In this document: one piece after another, positions 4,581-62,644 of the stretch
Position numbering within the stretch: the stretch's first letter is position 1
How the letters are laid out: each line of letters opens with the position of its first letter
DNA from: an uncultured Bacteroidia bacterium
GTDB lineage: Bacteria; Bacteroidota; Bacteroidia; Bacteroidales; F082
Assembly (NCBI GenBank): GCA_902786745.1
Contig: CADADR010000007.1
Coordinates: 80,282 to 144,281 of the forward strand
Direction: 5' to 3'
Length of the DNA: 64,000 bases
The notes under the pieces: model-generated
The model's input: only the letters and a program-made list of their open reading frames with translations
What the model was told of the DNA's origin: nothing
Database searches by the model: none
Translations under genes and position numbers: made by a program

Positions 4581-4620
4581 CGCTCCGTTGGCAATAAAAC
4601 GCGCCAGCGGAGCGTTTTTC
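4581..4620 (+). terminator. rho-independent terminator after the aminotransferase gene
   Basis: 12-bp stem cgctccgttggc/gccagcggagcg (one G-T pair) followed by a T-run. Confidence 0.7.
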
Positions 4621-4637
4621 ATTTAAACACCTACGAC

Positions 4638-5243
4638 ATGACATTCATTCAGCAGGCCATCAGCATCTTCAACCAAGCCATCGAAGACTATCACAAGTAT
4701 GACGACGTGGACCATCCTTGCGACAACCCCTACGAGGAGCATTCCATCGAAGGATACCTTTACAAAAAGGAATGGATCGACACCGTACAGTGGCACCTCG
4801 AAGACCTCATCCGCGACCCGAACATCGACCCGGCGACAGCCTTGACCTTGAAACGGCGCATCGACAAGTCGAATCAGGACCGCACCGACCTCGTGGAGAT
4901 GATTGACGAGTATTACTGGCAACTCTTCCAACAAGTGAAGCCCCAACCGAAGGCTACACTTAACACAGAGAGTCCCGCATGGGCCATCGACCGGCTGTCC
5001 ATCTTGCAGTTGAAGATCTATCACATGAAGGTAGAAGTGGCAAGAGCCAATGTCAGCGAAACGCACAAGGCCAAATGCCAAGCCAAACTTGATGTGCTGC
5101 TGGAGCAAAACACCGACTTGAGCACCGCCATCAGTCAACTCTTGGAGGCTTACCAGCGGGGCGAGAAGGTGATGAAGGTATACAAGCAGATGAAGATGTA
5201 CAATGACCCTGCATTGAACCCTGTGCTCTACGGTCAAAAATGA
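4638..5243 (+). CDS. DUF4254-like protein (usual partner of GT9 glycosyltransferases)
   Basis: ORF 4566..5243, with the start moved to ATG 4638 because the upstream part overlaps the terminator. The stop overlaps the GT9 start (ATGA). Family assignment is from memory of this conserved gene pair. Confidence 0.6.
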   Translation: MTFIQQAISIFNQAIEDYHKYDDVDHPCDNPYEEHSIEGYLYKKEWIDTVQWHLEDLIRDPNIDPATALTLKRRIDKSNQDRTDLVEMIDEYYWQLFQQVKPQPKATLNTESPAWAIDRLSILQLKIYHMKVEVARANVSETHKAKCQAKLDVLLEQNTDLSTAISQLLEAYQRGEKVMKVYKQMKMYNDPALNPVLYGQK

Positions 5244-6244
5244 AAAAACTCCTTGTCATACGGTTCTCCGCCTTAGGCGACATAGCAATGACTGTTCCTG
5301 TCGTCCACGACTTGGCCGTGCAATATCCCGACTTGAATATCACCATGCTTAGTCGGGAGATGGCGAGGCCTTTGTTTGAGCAGATGCCCGAGAACGTTCA
5401 CTTCATCGCAGCGGATCTGAAAGGTCGGCACAAGGGATTGCTTGGACTCTGCCGTCTATGGCGCGATGCCCATCTGAGCGACTTCGACTACATTGCCGAC
5501 TTCCATGACGTGCTGCGTACCTGGTGGTTGCGTGCCGAAGGTTGTCTGCGACGCAAAAAGGTGGCCAAGATCGACAAGGGACGCAAAGGCAAGAAGGCCT
5601 TGACACGTCAGAAAAACAAGGTTTTCGTCCAACAAGCCACCTCGTTCGAGCGCTATGCCAAGGTGTTGGAACATTTGGGATTCCCGATAAAACCGCAATT
5701 CACTAAGCTCGATTATTCAGCTTTTTGCGAAACGCAAAAAGAAGACCATGAGACTTGGGTCGGCATTGCGCCGTTTGCCAAACACCTCGCTAAAGTCTAT
5801 CCATTGGGGAATATGGAGCAAGTCATCAAGACCTTGAGCGAGAGGAAAAACACGACCATCTTCCTTTTCGGTGGTGGCGAAGAAGAAAAACGGCAGATTG
5901 CCGAGCTTTGCGCCAAATACCCGAACGTGAAAGCTGCTCAAAGCCAACAAGGCTTGAAAGGCGAATTGGCCTTAATGGGCCAGTTGGACGTAATGCTCTC
6001 AATGGACTCCGCCAACATGCACTTGGCATCCTTGGTCGGGACACGAGTGGTCTCCCTCTGGGGCGGCACCCATCCCTATACCGGTTTCATGGGGTGGAAC
6101 CAAAAGACAGAAGACTGCATCCAGCTGGATTTGCCTTGCCGACCCTGTTCGGTGTACGGCAACAAGCCTTGCCTGCGGGGCGACTACGCCTGTATGAACG
6201 GCATCGCGCCCGAACAAATCATCGAAAAGCTTGGTCTGTCATGA
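5240..6244 (+). CDS. glycosyltransferase family 9 (LPS heptosyltransferase-like)
   Basis: MKKLLVIRFSALGDIAMTVPVV is a typical GT9 N-terminus. 334 aa. Confidence 0.8.
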   Translation: MKKLLVIRFSALGDIAMTVPVVHDLAVQYPDLNITMLSREMARPLFEQMPENVHFIAADLKGRHKGLLGLCRLWRDAHLSDFDYIADFHDVLRTWWLRAEGCLRRKKVAKIDKGRKGKKALTRQKNKVFVQQATSFERYAKVLEHLGFPIKPQFTKLDYSAFCETQKEDHETWVGIAPFAKHLAKVYPLGNMEQVIKTLSERKNTTIFLFGGGEEEKRQIAELCAKYPNVKAAQSQQGLKGELALMGQLDVMLSMDSANMHLASLVGTRVVSLWGGTHPYTGFMGWNQKTEDCIQLDLPCRPCSVYGNKPCLRGDYACMNGIAPEQIIEKLGLS

Positions 6245-55123: not shown

Positions 55124-55960
55124 TTAAACACACAATTCACCTTTTGCCACAATCGCCGCAGTACCACCTACATAGATGGTCCCATCCTTTCGGATCTGTG
55201 TGGCCACCACCGAAGGTCTTCCCATGGCCTCGCCTTGCATGAAAGCGCATTCCGCTTCTGCACCAAGACATCCGTTATGCTGCAGATAGAAGGTCAAGGC
55301 AGCGTTGGCCGTGCCAGTGGCCGACTCTTCAGGCACGCCGTACAAAGGCCCGAAGTCGCGGACACGGGCCGTGTATTCATCGTTGGCGAAGGCAAAGACG
55401 TGGAAACTGACGGCATCGTATTTCTTCGTTATGGCAGCGATGGCCTCCATGTCGGGATTCAAAGCCTGCAAAGTATTCACATCGGGCAAGGGAATCATCA
55501 AGTCGGGAAGGCCAGAATAGGCGATTTGCACGGGCAAAGATGGTTGGTAATCACTGACACCCAATGCCTTATAGATCTCATCCGTCTCTTCGATGGTAGC
55601 CACAATGCACGGCATGGCCATCTGCATCATCACCCTCTCCCCTGCTTCTATACGCAAATTACCGGCAAGCGTGTGGCAAAGGCAAGTCCCCGAAGCCAAC
55701 CCTTCATGGTGCAGCAAATAGAATGAGGCTATGGTGGCATGGCCACACAGCTCCACCTCGGCTTTGGGCGTGAAATACCGGATAGTATACTCCTTATCGG
55801 AGTGTCGCCTGATGAAAGCCGTCTCCGAATAGCGCAACTCGGCAGCAATTTGCAGCATCAACTTTTCTTCGGGGAACTGGCCAGAGTCAAGCAGCACCAC
55901 ACCCGCAGGATTGCCGCCAAAAGGCTGGTCGGTAAAGGCATCAAGGATATAGTATGTCAT
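55124..55960 (-). CDS. PhzF-family isomerase
   Basis: MTYYILDAFTDQPFGGNPAGVV...ETAF...CGHATIA are PhzF motifs. Confidence 0.85.
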   Translation of the reverse strand: MTYYILDAFTDQPFGGNPAGVVLLDSGQFPEEKLMLQIAAELRYSETAFIRRHSDKEYTIRYFTPKAEVELCGHATIASFYLLHHEGLASGTCLCHTLAGNLRIEAGERVMMQMAMPCIVATIEETDEIYKALGVSDYQPSLPVQIAYSGLPDLMIPLPDVNTLQALNPDMEAIAAITKKYDAVSFHVFAFANDEYTARVRDFGPLYGVPEESATGTANAALTFYLQHNGCLGAEAECAFMQGEAMGRPSVVATQIRKDGTIYVGGTAAIVAKGELCV

Positions 55961-55978
55961 TATTTTATTCTATTTGTA

Positions 55979-57229
55979 CTATGGCTCATCTGTTTTGTTT
56001 TGCCTAACCACTATTGAAGCATCTTTTTGTACTGGTTTGCAACAGCTTTCATACAATTCTTGATTCTCCACGCGGAACGACTTGCTATCAAAAATGGTAC
56101 AATAGCTTCTGTATAGTTTTTCATCTTTCTCTCGGAGAAGATCGCTGTCAAATTTCAAAACAGTCTTTGGAGGAGAATAAGTAATAGTGAACCTAGTTGA
56201 CTTCATCTTCTCTTCACCATGGATTTCCATTTGTTGAAGCAGCTCTTTTCGCAATGCTCCAATTTGGTTCTCTGTCTCTTTCTTGAGGTCAATCAAACGA
56301 GCCAATTCATGGTCATAGTAATCAAACCAATTACATGATGAGTCTTCGACAAGTAGTTTTTTCAACCGAGCACGGATCGATCCTTCATTCCGCTGAAATC
56401 GAGTCATGATTTCAATAAGCGAAGCACCCTGTCTATGCATCTCCATCAATAAACTATCATCCTCTTGACTCCATTTAGCATAGGCATTCGGATGAAGTTG
56501 TTTCTGCCGATCTATATATGAAAGCTCCTTGTCAGAAGAAGAAATTTCTTTCTTTTCCAATTCTATTTTTGGAGGCAAAAACACACCAGCAACCAGTTTG
56601 AAATGAAAACCTTCGAATTCCAACCCCAATGAGAGTGTAAGGTAAACTCCTTTTAAGTTCGTGTATCTTTCGGGATTCTTCTTAAAAGCATCCAAAAAAT
56701 AAGGGTCCGTAATAGGGAAGTCATATTTTGAGCCATAATAAGTAAACTTCATCCGATACTTAGACTTTTCCCTTTCTTCGTCAATGTAGGCACTAGCTAT
56801 TTCAGGGCGTATGAGCATCAATGAATAGTTGAGCCGATCTATCATCTTTGCTGGGATGGCTTTCCCTCGAAAATAAAATACCGCTTGGTGAACAGGGTCA
56901 ATGAGTTGGCTCATGAAATCGTCTTTGAACTCATTGTCATTGGGACAGCATTCCATGCGCGAACAATGCACATCCTCGGTGTGAGCCTTATGAGGGCAAG
57001 GTACCACGTCAGTAAGTCTTACCAAAGAAAGCAATTTGACATCTTGCGCCAATTGCATTGGGATTTCTCCGTTTTCAGCCATCGAAACCGGGCGAATCCA
57101 ACAAGGGCGGCCGTCATCATGGCGAACAATATCCATACGACCGTCTGGCCTTGGCGAGACCTCAATGCCTGCGATGCAACGTCCACCATGTTTGTATGAA
57201 TTTGCCAAACAAATGAAATACTTATCCAT
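55979..57229 (-). CDS. multidomain hypothetical protein: Cys/His-rich N-terminal domain, Myb/HTH-like segment, coiled coil, duplicated FDSx9LYxSxC C-terminal motif
   Basis: ORF 55979..57238 begins at a TTG. ATG 57229 (MDKYFICLANSYKHGGRCIAG) lies 5 nt after the upstream stop. AT-rich. Confidence 0.7.
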   Translation of the reverse strand: MDKYFICLANSYKHGGRCIAGIEVSPRPDGRMDIVRHDDGRPCWIRPVSMAENGEIPMQLAQDVKLLSLVRLTDVVPCPHKAHTEDVHCSRMECCPNDNEFKDDFMSQLIDPVHQAVFYFRGKAIPAKMIDRLNYSLMLIRPEIASAYIDEEREKSKYRMKFTYYGSKYDFPITDPYFLDAFKKNPERYTNLKGVYLTLSLGLEFEGFHFKLVAGVFLPPKIELEKKEISSSDKELSYIDRQKQLHPNAYAKWSQEDDSLLMEMHRQGASLIEIMTRFQRNEGSIRARLKKLLVEDSSCNWFDYYDHELARLIDLKKETENQIGALRKELLQQMEIHGEEKMKSTRFTITYSPPKTVLKFDSDLLREKDEKLYRSYCTIFDSKSFRVENQELYESCCKPVQKDASIVVRQNKTDEP

Positions 57230-57234
57230 AATGC

Positions 57235-57678
57235 TCAAATGAGGTGAACAATCGTGACCTTTTCTTTACTATGCGTTTGCAGATATTCGGCCAATAGCCT
57301 GCGATGGCATTGCTCAGGTGTGTCTTCGCTACACAGGAAGCACGAGCCATCAAAAGCTTTTACACCGTATTTACGAATTATATCTCTGGCTTTCAGTAAG
57401 TTCGTATAAATATCTACATATTCTTCCCAGGTTACTTCCTCTTTGTGCCACCTGTCAAGCAACTCTTTTGTCGGTGCAAAATCGTCAATATGCTGATATG
57501 GAATATGGCAAATCTCGTTGACGAAAAACTCCAAGTCTTTTCCTTTGGCAAAACCAGCCAACTGACTACTGTTATTGATGCGAACATCCACCAATTGCTT
57601 CACGTGATTGTCGCGCAGCAAATTAAAAAAGTGTTCGGCACTTTTTTTCGTAAAGCCGATAGTAAAAAGAGTAATCAT
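57235..57678 (-). CDS. DUF488-family protein (short paralogue, 147 aa)
   Basis: LFTIGFT...LVDVR...LCSEDTPEQCHRRLL is the DUF488 signature. Confidence 0.8.
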   Translation of the reverse strand: MITLFTIGFTKKSAEHFFNLLRDNHVKQLVDVRINNSSQLAGFAKGKDLEFFVNEICHIPYQHIDDFAPTKELLDRWHKEEVTWEEYVDIYTNLLKARDIIRKYGVKAFDGSCFLCSEDTPEQCHRRLLAEYLQTHSKEKVTIVHLI

Positions 57679-57681
57679 AAG

Positions 57682-58314
57682 TTAATAGATTTCTTCGCTT
57701 TGCAATTCGGGCTTGTATCCTATTTCCTTGTTTTTCAGCCGATAGGCATCTCTTCGCTGATCTTCTTCAGTATACAATCCAAACATGTAATCCACTTCAG
57801 AAAGATGGTATTTGCGCGAATGGATGTAGGTAGCAATCATCTCTTTTTCCAACTTGTCCTGGGATGCCAATGAAGCGTCTTTCAAAATATGCTGGACATC
57901 GGTTCCATTGTCATAAAAATAGCGAGAAACAAGTGAAAAACGATGGCATTCTAAAGGATCGGCCTCAGAGCACATGAAAGCAATTCGGAAGCCTTTTTCC
58001 AAGCCTTTCATAACACGCTCAACGCCTTTCTTGAATAGGGGAGTCTCAACTGCTTTTTCAAAATCGACTTGGTCATTCTCATCCAAGCAATCCGTTCGTC
58101 TTGCGCCAAACTCGTCGCCAAAGTGCAAATACTGAATGTTGTGAGCCTTCAAATAGCATTTCAAACCATCTTGGTTGAATTGTGGAGAGTACTTACTAGC
58201 AGGAATGCTTCTGACATCAATCACACAATTGATGCCATGTGCATTCAGTAGTCCCATAAACTCCTCCAAAGATTGGTTGGAATGTCCTATACTATATACC
58301 TGGTAGTTATCCAT
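57682..58314 (-). CDS. DUF488-family protein (long paralogue, 210 aa)
   Basis: VYSIGHSNQSLEEF...VIDVRSIPASKYSPQF...MCSEADPLECHRF is the DUF488 signature. Confidence 0.8.
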   Translation of the reverse strand: MDNYQVYSIGHSNQSLEEFMGLLNAHGINCVIDVRSIPASKYSPQFNQDGLKCYLKAHNIQYLHFGDEFGARRTDCLDENDQVDFEKAVETPLFKKGVERVMKGLEKGFRIAFMCSEADPLECHRFSLVSRYFYDNGTDVQHILKDASLASQDKLEKEMIATYIHSRKYHLSEVDYMFGLYTEEDQRRDAYRLKNKEIGYKPELQSEEIY

Positions 58315-58339
58315 TCAAAGCTATTCAATTGTCTGGCTG

Positions 58340-58347
58340 CAAAAATA
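58340..58347 (-). promoter_or_regulatory. -7 box (rc TATTTTTG) for the DUF488 operon
   Basis: TAnnTTTG match 26 nt upstream of ATG 58314 and directly after the bcp stop. Confidence 0.5.
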
Positions 58348-58374
58348 AAGAATTATTTCCATTATCGCAACGGC

Positions 58375-58818
58375 TTATAAAATCTGTGCCGTATGGTTTT
58401 TCGTGTCCACCTTACCTATGGCATCAACGATAATGCCTTGTTCATCAATGACGTATGTGGTGCGCAGCGTGCCTTCAGTCACCTTGCCGTACATCTTTTT
58501 CTCACCCCATGCCTCGTAGGCTTTCAGGATGGTCAAGTCGGTATCGGCGATGAGATGGAAAGGCAGGTTGTATTTGGCGATGAAGTTTAGGTGCGACTTG
58601 GCGCTATCACGGCTGACGCCCAGCACGTTATAGCCCAAGGCCAAAAAGCGCTCGTAGTTGTCGCGCAGGTCACAAGCCTCGGCCGTGCAGCCCGGCGTGC
58701 TGTCCTTGGGATAGAAATAGAGCACCAGTTTCTTTCCAGCAAAATCCGTCAATTTGACGAGATTACCGTTCTCGTCTTGCCCTTCAAAGTAAGGGGCTTT
58801 TGTTCCTTTTTGCAACAT
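58375..58818 (-). CDS. bcp: thioredoxin-dependent thiol peroxidase (peroxiredoxin Bcp)
   Basis: YFYPKDSTPGCTAEAC peroxidatic Cys motif. 147 aa. Confidence 0.9.
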   Translation of the reverse strand: MLQKGTKAPYFEGQDENGNLVKLTDFAGKKLVLYFYPKDSTPGCTAEACDLRDNYERFLALGYNVLGVSRDSAKSHLNFIAKYNLPFHLIADTDLTILKAYEAWGEKKMYGKVTEGTLRTTYVIDEQGIIVDAIGKVDTKNHTAQIL

Positions 58819-60181: not shown

Positions 60182-60189
60182 TATCTTTG
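60182..60189 (+). promoter_or_regulatory. -7 box TATCTTTG ahead of riboswitch 1
   Basis: TAnnTTTG match 5 nt before the P1 stem. Confidence 0.5.
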
Positions 60190-60193
60190 CCGT

Positions 60194-60357
60194 CGATTTG
60201 CGGTGTCCCTTGCGGACTCAATAGGGAATCGGGTGTGAATCCCGGACAGTTCCCGCTGCTGTGATGGCTACAACGCTTGCCATGAATGCCACTGAAAGCC
60301 AGTCTTTCGGGAAGGCGGCAATGCGAGACCTCAGTCAGAAGACCTGCCTCAAGTCGC
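60194..60357 (+). promoter_or_regulatory. cobalamin (B12) riboswitch 1
   Basis: P1 pairs cgatttg with caagtcg. Conserved core AATAGGGAATCGGGTGTGAATCCCGGACAGTTCCCGCTGCTGTGA, then GCCACTG and GGGAAGGC. B12 box AGTCAGAAGACCTGCC (60334-60349). Confidence 0.9.
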
Positions 60358-60393
60358 TAAAAAAGACTTCCGGGAATTGAAGTTAGTAATATT

Positions 60394-61710
60394 ATGAAGA
60401 AACAATATCAAGCAGTTACGGCCGAGGAGGCCGTCAAAGTCATCAAGTCGGGCGATCACGTCCACATCAGTTCAGTTTCGAACGTTCCGCAATGTTTAGT
60501 CAAGGCCTTATGCGACAGAGGTCGCGCGGGCGAGCTCAAAAACGTATACATCCATCACCTACATACCGAGGGTGCCGCGCCATACGTCAACCCCGAATTT
60601 GAGGGCATCTTCCAACACAACGCCTTCTTCGTGGGCGCCAACGTACGTGAGAGCGTACAAAAAGGCCTCGCCGACTACATCCCCGTGTTCCTTGGTGAGA
60701 CCTCGAAGCTCTATCGTGAGCGTTACATCAAATGCAACGTGGCGATGATCCAGGTGTGTCCGCCCGACAAATTCGGCTATGTGTCGTTAGGTTCGTCGGT
60801 GGATGCCACCCTTGCCGCCATGGAGAGTGCAGAGTTCGTTATCGCCGTTGTAAACAAGCATGTGCCTCGTACCTTCGGCGACGCGTTGGTCCACATCAGC
60901 AGGATCAACATCTTTGTTGAAGATGATTCGCCATTGCTCACTGTCGACATGCCCGAGCCCAACGAGGTGGAGAAGACCATCGGTCGCTATTGCGCCGAAT
61001 TGATCGAAGACGGTGCCTGCCTGCAGATGGGCATCGGTTCCATACCCAACGCCATCCTCTCGTGCCTCCACAACCATAAAAACATCGGCATCCATACAGA
61101 GATGTTCTCCGACGGCATTCTGCCGCTTGTGAAGAAAGGCGTCATCACAGGCGACAACAAGAAACTCAACAAGGGCAAAATCGTTTCCACCTTCGTGATG
61201 GGTTCGAAGAAAATCTACGACTTCATCGATGGTAACCACGAGGTGCTGCTGATGGACGTGGAATACACCAACGACCCTTTTATCATTGCTCAACAGCCGA
61301 AGATGACTTCCATCAACTCGGGCATCCAGATCGACCTATCGGGACAGGTGTGCGCCGACTCGTTGGGTGAACGTATCTATTCAGGTGTGGGCGGACAGAT
61401 TGACTACGTCTATGGCGCCTCACGTTCCAAAGGCGGCAAGGCCATCATCGCCATGCCGTCCACCACGCGTAAGGGCATCAACAAAATCGTGCCCACCCTT
61501 GATTTGGGTTCAGGTGCTGTCACCACGCGTAACCACATTCACTGGTTCGTCACCGAATATGGTGCCGTGAACTTATATGGACGCTCGTTGCAGGAGCGAG
61601 CCAAACTCATCATCTCGGTGGCGCATCCGCAATTCCAGGAGATGCTCGACGAGGCAGCCTTCAAACGCTTTGGTCCGCATTTCCATTACCTTTGGAATAA
61701 CATCCTATAA
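60394..61710 (+). CDS. acetyl-CoA hydrolase/transferase family protein (4-hydroxybutyrate/succinate CoA-transferase-like)
   Basis: 438 aa with GIGSIPNA, HTEMFSDG and SINSGIQIDLSGQVCADS motifs typical of the family. Confidence 0.8.
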   Translation: MKKQYQAVTAEEAVKVIKSGDHVHISSVSNVPQCLVKALCDRGRAGELKNVYIHHLHTEGAAPYVNPEFEGIFQHNAFFVGANVRESVQKGLADYIPVFLGETSKLYRERYIKCNVAMIQVCPPDKFGYVSLGSSVDATLAAMESAEFVIAVVNKHVPRTFGDALVHISRINIFVEDDSPLLTVDMPEPNEVEKTIGRYCAELIEDGACLQMGIGSIPNAILSCLHNHKNIGIHTEMFSDGILPLVKKGVITGDNKKLNKGKIVSTFVMGSKKIYDFIDGNHEVLLMDVEYTNDPFIIAQQPKMTSINSGIQIDLSGQVCADSLGERIYSGVGGQIDYVYGASRSKGGKAIIAMPSTTRKGINKIVPTLDLGSGAVTTRNHIHWFVTEYGAVNLYGRSLQERAKLIISVAHPQFQEMLDEAAFKRFGPHFHYLWNNIL

Positions 61711-62319: not shown

Positions 62320-62327
62320 TAAATTTG
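62320..62327 (+). promoter_or_regulatory. -7 box TAAATTTG ahead of riboswitch 2
   Basis: TAnnTTTG match 5 nt before the P1 stem. Confidence 0.5.
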
Positions 62328-62331
62328 CAGC

Positions 62332-62494
62332 CGATTTGTGGTGTCCTTCACGGACTCAATAGGGAATCGGGTGTGAATCCCGTACAGTTCCCGCTGCTGT
62401 GATGGCCAATCGCCTGCCACTGTGCCACTGAAAACTTAGTTTTTCGGGAAGGCGGCAGAAGCGAGGCCTCAGTCAGAAGACCTGCCTCAAGTCG
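62332..62494 (+). promoter_or_regulatory. cobalamin (B12) riboswitch 2 (close paralogue of riboswitch 1)
   Basis: Same P1 (cgatttg/caagtcg), same core and the same B12 box AGTCAGAAGACCTGCC (62471-62486). The downstream CTTCCGGGAATTG block is also shared. Confidence 0.9.
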
Positions 62495-62644
62495 CGAAAC
62501 AAGGCTTCCGGGAATTGGAGCTGGGATTCTATATTTAACAAGGTATGCCCAACGCAGGGTGTTATCTTCATTTTAGGTATTCCAACATTTTTCCAAGAAG
62601 TTTTGAGGTAAGAAACTGAATGTCTAACCTTTAAACTTATATTT

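Follow-up and report, generated by a model that had tools for sequence, protein, structure and literature searches.

The closest described counterpart of the locus analysed here is PDC-M45, a three-family candidate that was kept by guilt-by-embedding in BREX, DISARM and RM-I loci and is one of 145 PDCs, all of them listed as candidates (Payne et al., bioRxiv 10.1101/2024.01.29.577857). In the literature searched, the name PDC-M45 was found only in a supplement and in no main text. Burroughs and Aravind reportedly predicted, in 2023, DNA-end processing in virus-host conflict, and are said to have united the PTP fold with the tetrapyrrole-methylase fold. Among PTP-fold enzymes, the cysteine-dependent polynucleotide phosphatases, of which the baculovirus RNA 5'-phosphatase BVP is one and DUSP11 and the metazoan capping-enzyme triphosphatases are others, have terminal phosphates of nucleic acids as their substrates. 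HIN-200 proteins (AIM2/IFI16/p202), POT1/TEBP-alpha/Teb1, RPA and LEF-3 are dsDNA sensors and binders of ssDNA or telomere ends. No biochemical work on DUF488 or DUF4326, and no experimentally defined DUF488 activity, turned up in the searchable literature, and a 2024 preprint states that there is no literature on YeaO, a DUF488 protein of E. coli. A 'resistance' reported for phage Gp157 has been attributed to a non-coding ori element.

By its profile matches, the trio found in our window (the whole 64,000-nt stretch of DNA analysed) is the PADLOC candidate PDC-M45: families A (DuOB), B (long DUF488) and C (short DUF488) are all matched strongly within one co-directional cassette, and Pfam already holds DuOB and DUF488-N3a/N3i models, so that the "undescribed system" proposed in the first-pass annotation turns out to be catalogued. 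It differs from PDC-M45 in gene order, which is B-C-A here and A-B-C on a Rhodovastum plasmid, in the extra HTH-Gp157 tail of the third protein, where the PADLOC A match covers only aa 3-221, and in its position outside BREX/DISARM/RM-I loci and any defence island, the embedding criterion. The likeness to the families of Burroughs and Aravind lies in the second protein passing DUF488-N3a, the third passing DuOB and the model of the first giving weak matches to both of the united folds.

Layout and composition of the locus

Three minus-strand reading frames, 58314->57682 (g1, 210 aa), 57678->57235 (g2, 147 aa) and 57229->55979 (g3, 416 aa), are separated by 3 and 5 nt and followed by phzF after a further 18 nt, and the bcp stop lies 60 nt before g1. 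Coordinates, tight packing and all three spacers of the trio and phzF agree with the first-pass annotation. The features are as follows.

58846-58839, minus strand: putative bcp promoter box TAACTTTG, from a motif scan of the window
58375..58818, minus strand: bcp (AhpC/TSA peroxiredoxin), upstream flank; Pfam AhpC-TSA E 8e-40
55961..58374, minus strand: whole accessory insert, 2,414 bp, GC 0.408, delimited by comparison with empty bcp/phzF sites
58340..58347 (58347->58340), minus strand: TAnnTTTG box TATTTTTG, putative Bacteroidota-type -7 promoter upstream of g1, read from the sequence
57682..58314, minus strand: g1, long DUF488 (210 aa), PDC-M45B type; Pfam DUF488 E 1.7e-21, PADLOC PDC-M45B E 1.1e-53
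57235..57678, minus strand: g2, short DUF488 (147 aa), DUF488-N3a 'active' subclade, PDC-M45C type; Pfam DUF488 E 1.2e-21, PADLOC PDC-M45C E 1.3e-57
55979..57229, minus strand: g3, DuOB-HTH-Gp157-like protein (416 aa), PDC-M45A type; PADLOC PDC-M45A E 3.7e-29
56579..57229, minus strand: DuOB domain of g3, aa 1-217, two beta-rich lobes, tandem OB; Pfam PF22557, 125 bits
56348..56518, minus strand: three-helix HTH of g3, aa 238-294; model helices, profile match to PDB 2lvs E 1.7e-3
56000..56329, minus strand: coiled-coil and beta module of g3, aa 301-410, Gp157-like; Pfam Sipho_Gp157, PHROG, BFVD
55124..55960, minus strand: phzF-like gene, downstream flank; Pfam PhzC-PhzF E 1.5e-63

With 40.8% GC, compared with 50.8% across the window, the insert (55961-58374) is the GC-poorest segment of its length in the 64 kb, which bears out the earlier remark that the block is AT-richer than its flanks; the hand counts of G+C behind that remark, 33/90 and 50/90, were reproduced exactly. 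GC3 is 0.41-0.45 in the islet genes versus 0.61-0.70 in the flanking ones. An in-frame TTG at 57238 lies upstream of the g3 ATG, and the ATG is the correct start because all relatives begin MDKYF/MEKYF.

The TAnnTTTG motif is commoner than expected in the window (58 observed, 29 expected), which makes TATTTTTG, the box behind which the islet had been placed, a plausible g1 promoter element, although a single copy is not significant by itself. A second box, TAGCTTTG, occupies 58323->58316, 2 nt from the g1 ATG. No terminator was found between bcp and g1, and bcp is the probable co-transcription partner of the islet. Co-transcription with phzF, previously raised as a possibility, appears likely from the sequence, because the islet lies inside a bcp-phzF operon that otherwise has a 3-nt spacer and in which no terminator-like site was seen.

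Domain architecture of the three proteins

Profile-HMM searches confirmed that g1 and g2 are both DUF488 proteins (PF04343, 77.5 and 78.1 bits against a gathering threshold of 22.2) and, as had been supposed, only distant relatives, with 27% identity over 133 aa. On DUF488-N3a (PF22751, gathering threshold 27 bits) g2 scores 34.8 bits and g1 only 13.4 bits, which places g1 outside that subclade. The motifs G10-H11-S12, D33-x-R35 and C115-S-E-x2-P-x2-C123-H124-R125 of g1, accompanied by a conserved C-terminal extension (68 sequences), correspond to G8-F9-T10, D31-x-R33 and C116-S-E-x5-C124-H125-R126 of g2 (53 sequences), and in each paralogue family conservation of G-H/F-S/T, D-x-R and C-S-E...C-H-R reaches at least 95%. 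A g1-type long DUF488 is found in every variant of the system.

Searches of PDB sequences with g1 and with g2 returned nothing meaningful. The AF2 model of g1 (pLDDT 83.7) has weak PTP-fold matches: its best Foldseek matches are PTP/DSP enzymes (E 5e-3 to 6e-2, TM 0.3-0.5), including, also weakly, BVP (PDB 1yn9; E ~2e-2, TM 0.33-0.46), and tetrapyrrole-methylase-fold enzymes are matched as well. In the model, C115 and R125 bracket a strand-loop-helix, from strand end to helix start, in a manner analogous to PTP topology. The PTP-fold polynucleotide phosphatases have a Rossmann-like fold in which the nucleophilic Cys ends a strand and an Arg opens the helix that follows, an arrangement that DUF488 may share; its invariant pair (C115...R125 in g1, C116...R126 in g2) forms a C-x9-R loop that differs from the C-x5-R signature of PTPs.

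The g3 protein (AF2 pLDDT 77) has the four parts attributed to it, namely DuOB, the HTH (aa 238-294), a long helix (aa 301-337) and a Gp157-like tail. The N-terminal segment of about 220 aa first described as Cys/His-rich is DuOB (about 217 aa; E 4.9e-36, profile positions 2-210 of 210), so that its extent stood and its generic Cys/His character did not; only C7 and C18 are conserved among the cysteines family-wide, and a zinc-cluster reading was rejected on that ground. DuOB has many family-wide invariant polar residues and may therefore be more than a passive binder. Structure modelling followed by Foldseek indicated a tandem-OB fold of two OB-like lobes, whose best matches are HIN-200, Teb1, POT1, TEBP-alpha, RPA and LEF-3, all weak (TM 0.3-0.4). 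This likeness is at the level of fold only, with about 8% identity, and the invariant motifs of DuOB itself, C-LANS-K, RC-AG, W-RP and Y-x4-TD, are absent from those families.

The HTH is variable among relatives and absent from P0033 and P0034. The tail passes Sipho_Gp157 (PF05565) marginally, at 30.8 bits against a threshold of 28.6 over aa 305-364, the alignment being confined to 61 central positions (59-119) of the 162 in the profile; it also matches phrog_6244 (E 2e-13) and phrog_253 (E 1.8e-7), and BFVD gives Gp157-type matches. Structural matches include small phage Gp157 proteins and RecB-like exonucleases bearing the module, a tail of this type being seen on phage RecB/PD-(D/E)XK exonucleases too. 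The suggested Gp157/Gam kinship is marginally supported for Gp157, while Gam traces solely to the phrog_253 label, 'Mu Gam-like end protection', as Phage_Mu_Gam gave no Pfam match in g3 at E<=0.1. The reported duplication of FDSx9LYxSxC was recovered at aa 359-377 (56099-56155) and aa 379-397 (56039-56095), and the motif is single-copy in 394-aa relatives. A word-indexed homology search with the tail alone gave at least 4 proteins, one of which revealed a split-gene version, with locus L113 encoding the Gp157-like module as a separate adjacent gene.

Recurrence, neighbourhoods and strain-level gain and loss

The trio is a conserved three-gene unit under purifying selection, with dN/dS of 0.08-0.17 for the islet genes. 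In the gene-neighbourhood survey, the order long DUF488, short DUF488, DuOB, on the same strand and tightly spaced, recurs at about 58 of 79 species-level loci; trio-bearing loci span Bacteroidales, Chitinophagales and Ignavibacteriales, and the cassette also occurs on proteobacterial plasmids. Any thought that the three genes might never be co-located elsewhere is thus contradicted across dozens of species. Two-gene, NUDIX-linked and plasmid-borne DUF4326-containing variants exist, the NUDIX partner being itself the PADLOC candidate PDC-S07. DuOB also occurs in fusions with a complete RecQ and with PIF1-HTH_40 helicases, in 10 loci the gene next upstream encodes a PIF1-HRDC-HTH_40 helicase, and DuOB tails are hypervariable among relatives.

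DuOB cassettes reside on 16 plasmids, a 4.2-kb mobilizable plasmid carries the cassette as sole cargo, and the A-B-C trio of the Rhodovastum plasmid lies beside a giant SNF2-related protein with many small unknown genes around. The g2 protein shares 46-52% identity with DUF488 proteins encoded on 122 plasmids, of which 80 are conjugative. Unrelated plasmids carry formaldehyde-response clusters in which a stand-alone g2-type DUF488 gene follows a UvrA paralogue or precedes UvrB. Complete E. coli genomes matched the proteobacterial cassette only by DUF4326 fragments. The absence of DuOB from INPHARED phages and IMG/VR contigs led us to reject a prophage origin of this domain.

Whether the trio sits in defence islands, as the first-pass annotation had asked, was answered in the negative: neighbours at the 79 loci and in the window are housekeeping genes, including across loci bcp, an MGMT-like protein and NUDIX/MutT-like proteins. 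Neither the window nor the 150 neighbours surveyed showed a defence-island setting, and any one PADLOC family accounts for at most 2 of the 150. Genes of mobile elements, integrase and relaxase included, are lacking beside the Bacteroidales copies.

The islet has been gained or lost by recombination within the bcp-phzF operon of a rumen Bacteroidales (F082-like) population, probably through homologous recombination of the flanks. Among rumen Bacteroidales contigs, L081, L091, L093 and others have an empty site at which bcp runs into phzF as TAA-GCT-ATG, phzF beginning 3 nt past the bcp stop, and the flanks of these three share 95-97% identity at the DNA level and 99% at the protein level. A survey of the site found it empty in 17 cases, occupied by the trio in 4 and by other cargo in 2, the latter a secreted phosphatase/peptidase with no defence gene. 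In the islet dS ranges from 0.05 to 0.14, compared with 0.22-0.37 for the flanks, a 4-7-fold reduction; the 5' 600 bp of phzF are more diverged than the outer flanks. Low GC accompanies the cassette in 71 of 76 loci. Empty sites in near-identical contigs, alternative cargo, low islet dS and this compositional signal together substantiate the lateral acquisition suspected earlier. No integrase or transposase lies inside the insert, and no convincing terminal repeat or target-site duplication was found at its borders; a flanking 13-mer was rejected as a border repeat because it lies within the bcp and phzF coding sequence.

A possible role at DNA ends

Our reading of the whole, offered tentatively and with real doubt, is a PDC-M45-type operon in which DUF488 enzymes targeted by g3 would process DNA ends and defend the cell by way of non-self ends. 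In broader terms the cassette is best read as a DNA-terminus recognition and phosphoester-processing module whose role is probably in conflict with invading DNA, with accessory DNA repair as a close rival. Here g3 would be the targeting subunit, whose DuOB, aided by the HTH and the Gp157-type module, would bind ssDNA or DNA termini and recruit both DUF488 enzymes. The invariant Cys and Arg of their putative PTP-like fold, at strand end and helix start, would form an enlarged phosphate-binding loop with which g1 and g2 may remove or transfer a phosphate-linked group at the DNA end, either a plain 5'/3' phosphate or a phosphotyrosyl, adenylyl or ADP-ribosyl phospho-adduct. If incoming DNA from phages or plasmids is marked by its free or adducted termini, processing of these would keep the invader from being ligated, circularised, recombined or replicated, and a block exerted through ends would constitute a defence system that separates non-self from self by DNA ends. 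The DNA-end processing in virus-host conflict that Burroughs and Aravind reportedly predicted agrees with this proposal.

As pointing to DNA targeting we counted the DuOB fold matches, the RecQ/PIF1 fusions, the adjacent PIF1-HRDC-HTH_40 helicase and the Gp157-type tail, and as pointing to an enzyme the g1 matches to Cys-PTP/DSP enzymes, including the baculovirus phosphatase. Retained function is suggested by the dN/dS values and the full motif set in both DUF488 paralogues. For a conflict role, presence or absence in near-identical strains, low islet dS, low GC, hypervariable tails, mini-plasmid carriage and the PDC-S07 identity of the NUDIX partner were considered; the weak fold matches, the C-x9-R loop, the housekeeping neighbours, the non-defence cargo at the same hotspot, the UvrA/UvrB pairing of g2-type DUF488 and the invariant polar residues of DuOB were counted against. 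The nucleic-acid-directed conflict or repair function initially expected of the trio agrees with its tandem-OB fold, with the fusions to helicases and with UvrA/UvrB as neighbours, and its defence-island setting is unsupported here because the neighbours are housekeeping genes.

Much of this evidence has to be weighed against an accessory repair or damage-tolerance module that, with PIF1/RecQ-type helicases and expressed together with bcp, would act on host DNA after oxidative or aldehyde damage, DuOB binding ssDNA or broken ends and the DUF488 enzymes cleaning blocked termini or phospho-adducts. Though on balance rather unlikely, such a role would suit the DuOB fusions to complete RecQ and PIF1, the helicase adjacent in 10 loci, the housekeeping or stress neighbours (bcp, MGMT-like, NUDIX/MutT-like) outside defence islands and the terminator-free position within the bcp operon, and the stand-alone g2-type DUF488 genes beside UvrA/UvrB in formaldehyde-stress clusters on unrelated plasmids point to repair. 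Strain-level presence/absence, low islet dS, low GC, hypervariable tails and sole carriage on a mini-plasmid are more conflict-like, as is the embedding of PDC-M45 in BREX/DISARM/RM-I loci described by the PADLOC authors; accessory repair genes can be mobile too, however, so the mobility evidence against repair is not decisive.

Mobility also bears on an improbable third possibility, in which the cassette serves establishment or counter-defence of a mobile element by guarding or processing the incoming ssDNA or ends of plasmids or other mobile DNA, for instance against RecBCD-like or restriction attack. The 16 DuOB plasmids, the 122 plasmids (80 conjugative) with g2-type DUF488, the Rhodovastum trio next to a giant SNF2-related protein among small unknown genes, the derivation of the Gp157 tail from phage replication/recombination modules and the frequency of the plasmid partner DUF4326 in viruses speak for it; against it stand the lack of DuOB in INPHARED phages or IMG/VR contigs, the Bacteroidales copies amid housekeeping genes without integrase, relaxase or other mobile-element genes, and the lack of terminal repeats at the insert borders. 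Chromosomal copies would, on such an account, be domesticated or hitch-hiking. That the islet is instead a degraded prophage remnant or functionless hitch-hiker, with g3 a leftover phage gene unrelated to the DUF488s, was one earlier concern and is hardly credible: the phage flavour of the Gp157-like tail and its PHROG matches notwithstanding, it is contradicted by fixed-order co-occurrence in dozens of species and purifying selection on all three genes, and further phage genes are lacking nearby as is DuOB in phage collections.

Within the preferred end-processing reading, a more specific version, which we regard as unlikely, makes DuOB an end- or adduct-specific reader, perhaps catalytic through a near-invariant Cys7/Cys18 pocket, and has the DUF488s strip phospho-adducts from DNA ends as part of an immune or repair machine. 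Candidate adducts are the 5'-phosphotyrosyl protein links of relaxases, terminal proteins and rolling-circle Rep, as well as adenylyl and ADP-ribosyl groups. If true, the cassette would stop invaders that are protein-primed or led by a relaxase from entering or replicating, it would resolve DNA-protein crosslinks in the plasmid UvrA/UvrB contexts, and the DUF488s would be the first bacterial esterases removing phosphate-linked adducts from DNA ends.

Members of DUF488 are very widespread, and the cassette fixes two such enzymes to a predicted DNA-binding subunit. Near-isogenic strains with and without it offer natural controls, and the minimal 4.2-kb plasmid version, together with the NUDIX, DUF4326, PIF1/RecQ-fusion and UvrA/UvrB variants, makes the chemistry directly testable. 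Should end processing prove true, it would add a way of discriminating self from non-self, or of repairing ends, via DNA termini, and three orphan domain families would gain a function together.

Composition and identity of the islet

The islet is a further member of the catalogued phage-defence candidate system PDC-M45 of PADLOC, carrying an HTH-Gp157 tail on its DuOB subunit. It consists of three packed minus-strand ORFs, whose coordinates and gaps of 3 nt (genes 1 and 2) and 5 nt (genes 2 and 3), as read in the first-pass annotation, were all confirmed in the sequence.

58314-57682, minus strand: gene 1, long DUF488 protein, 210 aa
57678-57235, minus strand: gene 2, short DUF488 protein (DUF488-N3a), 147 aa
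57229-55979, minus strand: gene 3, DuOB protein, 416 aa

Gene 3 is taken to start at the ATG at 57229 rather than at an upstream TTG, because all its relatives open with MDKYF or MEKYF. The spacers are 60 nt from the bcp stop to gene 1 and 18 nt from gene 3 to the phzF start, and no terminator-like site was found in either. Upstream of gene 1 the minus strand reads TATTTTTG at 58347-58340, a TAnnTTTG box; this motif is about two-fold enriched window-wide (58 observed versus 29 expected), consistent with a Bacteroidota genome, and one copy alone would be no proof of a promoter.

Both smaller proteins match Pfam DUF488 in profile searches (E about 1e-21 each) and share 27% identity, in agreement with their description as distant paralogues; gene 2 additionally exceeds the Pfam threshold of the 'active DUF488-N3' subclade. 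The N-terminal 217 aa of gene 3, initially read as a Cys/His-rich region, form a Pfam DuOB (dual OB) domain (125 bits), and a zinc-cluster reading of it is rejected, since C7 and C18 are the only conserved cysteines across 139 DuOB representatives. Its phage-like tail was upheld at the margin, passing the Sipho_Gp157 threshold narrowly over only a third of the model, with PHROG matches to phrog_6244 and to a family labelled 'Mu Gam-like end protection'. The Gp157 'resistance' effect is caused by a non-coding ori element. Burroughs and Aravind (2023) is presumably the source of the Pfam DuOB and DUF488-N3 models, and literature searches yielded no biochemical study of DUF488 or DUF4326.

All three proteins match PDC-M45 profiles: gene 1 component B (1e-53), gene 2 component C (1e-57) and gene 3 component A (4e-29). 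PDC systems are the output of a 'guilt-by-embedding' screen for genes lying inside BREX, DISARM and type I RM loci, and their authors describe the 145 PDCs as untested candidates; the supplementary table lists this three-family cassette with 68 occurrences under the entry 'Assign as candidate PDC-M45' (Payne et al., bioRxiv 10.1101/2024.01.29.577857). The trio is therefore a catalogued, uncharacterised system and not an undescribed one as first proposed, while the broader view of it as laterally acquired and nucleic-acid-directed is retained.

Acquisition at the junction of bcp and phzF

Compositional, comparative and divergence data converge on lateral acquisition, as the low G+C content had suggested. 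The 2,414-bp block at 55961-58374 has 40.8% GC against 50.8% for the window, the minimum for that size across the 64 kb, and hand counts made earlier in the islet and in phzF (33/90 and 50/90) proved exact. GC3 is 0.41-0.45 in the islet genes versus 0.61-0.70 in their neighbours, and in 71/76 loci the cassette has a higher AT content than its flanks. Among metagenome contigs anchored on PhzF, 17 loci are empty, with bcp leading directly into phzF (TAA-GCT-ATG), 4 carry the trio, and 2 (L097, at 4597-5994, and L098) hold in its place a different, 1.4-kb cargo encoding a 465-aa secreted protein, judged by eye to be an acid-phosphatase/VanX-like fusion; the junction is a cargo hotspot. In three empty-site contigs the flanks match those of the window at 95-97% identity in DNA and 99% in protein. 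The natural presence/absence setting is unusually clean.

When the window is compared with a trio-bearing strain, the islet genes show synonymous divergences of 0.05, 0.05 and 0.14, against 0.37 and 0.22 for bcp and phzF, which indicates that the islet is more recent than its surroundings. The 5' ~600 bp of phzF (55360-55960) are 84-94% identical to other strains, compared with 96-100% in the outer flanks, and this lower identity appears even against another trio-bearing strain; such elevated divergence suggests that the junction has recombined repeatedly. No mobility genes were found in the insert and no convincing border repeats at its ends, and the probable route is recombination through the flanks. 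The insert interrupts the 3-nt junction between bcp and phzF and has the same orientation, so phzF must depend on read-through from upstream, which lends inferential support to the proposed co-transcription of islet and phzF.

Conservation and predicted folds

Gene 3 has hundreds of relatives. When one genome per species was scanned, 79 loci were obtained, the nearest (94-96% identity) in MAGs resembling 'bacterium F082'. They lie mostly in rumen Bacteroidales and Prevotella, with others in Bacteroides, Segatella copri, Chitinophagales and Ignavibacteriales. The trio recurs: in a mechanical survey, long DUF488, short DUF488 and DuOB follow one another tightly on one strand in about 58/79 loci, a two-gene form (long DUF488 and DuOB) occupies about 17, and an extra upstream DuOB gene is present in 4. 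G-H/F-S/T, D-x-R and C-S-E...C-H-R are conserved at 95% or more in each of the two paralogue families, so that neither looks inactive. The DuOB tail is hypervariable, being absent, limited to the HTH, composed of the HTH with one or two FDS...LY...YC repeats, or replaced by unrelated extensions that Pfam does not match; one contig encodes the Gp157-like module as a gene of its own directly after DuOB.

Several loci depart from this layout. In Segatella copri N016-9 (L071, 8396-9682) a DDE IS transposase lies between the short DUF488 and DuOB, splitting the operon. In four Prevotella-type loci (L022, L026, L027 and L048; about 6664-8820 in L022) a 447-aa protein and then a second, divergent DuOB lie 5' of the trio, the former matching nothing in Pfam or PADLOC. 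A conserved 274-aa protein, likewise lacking Pfam and PADLOC matches, follows a stand-alone DuOB in Ignavibacteriales, Chitinophagaceae and Bacteroidia (L073, L075, L077; e.g., L075 9045-9869) and may be a fourth component of the DuOB system.

Structural models suggest for the trio a DNA-binding-type subunit and two predicted enzymes of a probably cysteine-phosphatase-like fold. The gene 3 model (pLDDT 77) shows two beta-rich lobes together with a three-helix bundle, a helix of 37 residues and a small alpha/beta module; at fold level only, it resembles HIN-200 domains (AIM2, IFI16, p202), Teb1, POT1, TEBP-alpha and RPA in the PDB; its viral matches are baculovirus LEF-3, RecB-like exonucleases and small phage proteins of Gp157 type. 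The near-invariant polar set of DuOB, unusually rich across the 139 representatives, consists of N10, S11, K13, R17, W44, R46 and E85, continued by S136, R159, Y169, T174, D175, S200 and K211. The gene 1 model (pLDDT 84, pTM 0.81) gives weak but coherent matches to Cys-dependent PTP/DSP enzymes, including baculovirus RNA 5'-phosphatase, and to tetrapyrrole-methylase-fold enzymes. Its invariant C115 sits at the end of a beta-strand, with R125 at the start of the helix that follows, a predicted geometry similar to the PTP P-loop, although their spacing is nine residues rather than five.

Genomic settings and possible role

In the loci surveyed the trio does not occupy a defence island: housekeeping genes (tRNA synthetases, GAPDH, GroEL, DnaB, ECF sigma factors, SusD) surround it in about 55 different contexts, a PADLOC search of 150 neighbours found no family recurring more than twice, and the remainder of the window, with LpxC, LpxK, GyrB and ribosomal protein S6 among its products, belongs to the core genome. 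Elsewhere in the window, single ORFs match PADLOC candidate PDC-S01 (E 1e-162) and PD-T4-6 (about 1e-31), and two full-length cobalamin riboswitches lie at 60184-60365 (+) and 62322-62503 (+) (105.6 and 107.6 bits), the first just 5' of an acetyl-CoA hydrolase/transferase-like ORF (60394-61710). A 130-aa NUDIX protein matching candidate PDC-S07 (E 7.7e-52) is encoded 5' of the two-gene variant in four loci (L057, L059, L060, L064), and NUDIX, long DUF488 and DuOB may form an alternative three-gene system.

DuOB was absent from the phage collections searched and occurs on 16 proteobacterial plasmids, with the order DuOB-DUF488-DUF488 on a Rhodovastum plasmid and DuOB-DUF488-DUF4326 on a Citrobacter IncFII plasmid and a 4.2-kb Klebsiella plasmid (L112), where it is essentially the sole cargo. 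The latter shares its replicon type with the 8.2-kb Salmonella plasmid pA172 (L116), in which an ISEcp1-blaCMY-31 unit lies just 5' of DUF488-DUF4326, apparently at the DuOB position. Stand-alone gene 2-type DUF488 was found on 122 plasmids, of which 80 are conjugative; on those inspected it stands after a UvrA paralogue or ahead of UvrB, within formaldehyde-response clusters of enterobacterial IncX5/IncFII plasmids and one Acinetobacter plasmid.

Gene 2-type DUF488 beside UvrA/UvrB paralogues and a formaldehyde-responsive repressor
L115, 4161-7435
L118, 2161-5435
L117, 5004-7655

A role in conflict is tentatively favoured, at somewhat under even chances, because of strain-level presence and absence, young islet alleles and low GC, together with variable tails, mini-plasmid carriage and the embedding evidence behind PADLOC. 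Accessory DNA repair is a close rival, if a rather doubtful one: 10 loci have a PIF1-HRDC-HTH_40 helicase as their immediate upstream neighbour and one has it on the downstream side, helicases of this type are fused to DuOB in L053 and P0341, and a complete RecQ is fused to another DuOB, to which are added the UvrA/UvrB links of gene 2-type DUF488 and the housekeeping or stress context. Both are preferred to a part in plasmid establishment or counter-defence, which we consider improbable, and still more to a functionless remnant, which is very improbable; dN/dS is 0.08-0.17 in all three genes.

The trio is a conserved, selected and mobile three-gene unit. In the proposed mechanism, gene 3 would recognise single-stranded DNA or DNA termini and then recruit the DUF488 pair, which would process a phosphate-linked group at the terminus.
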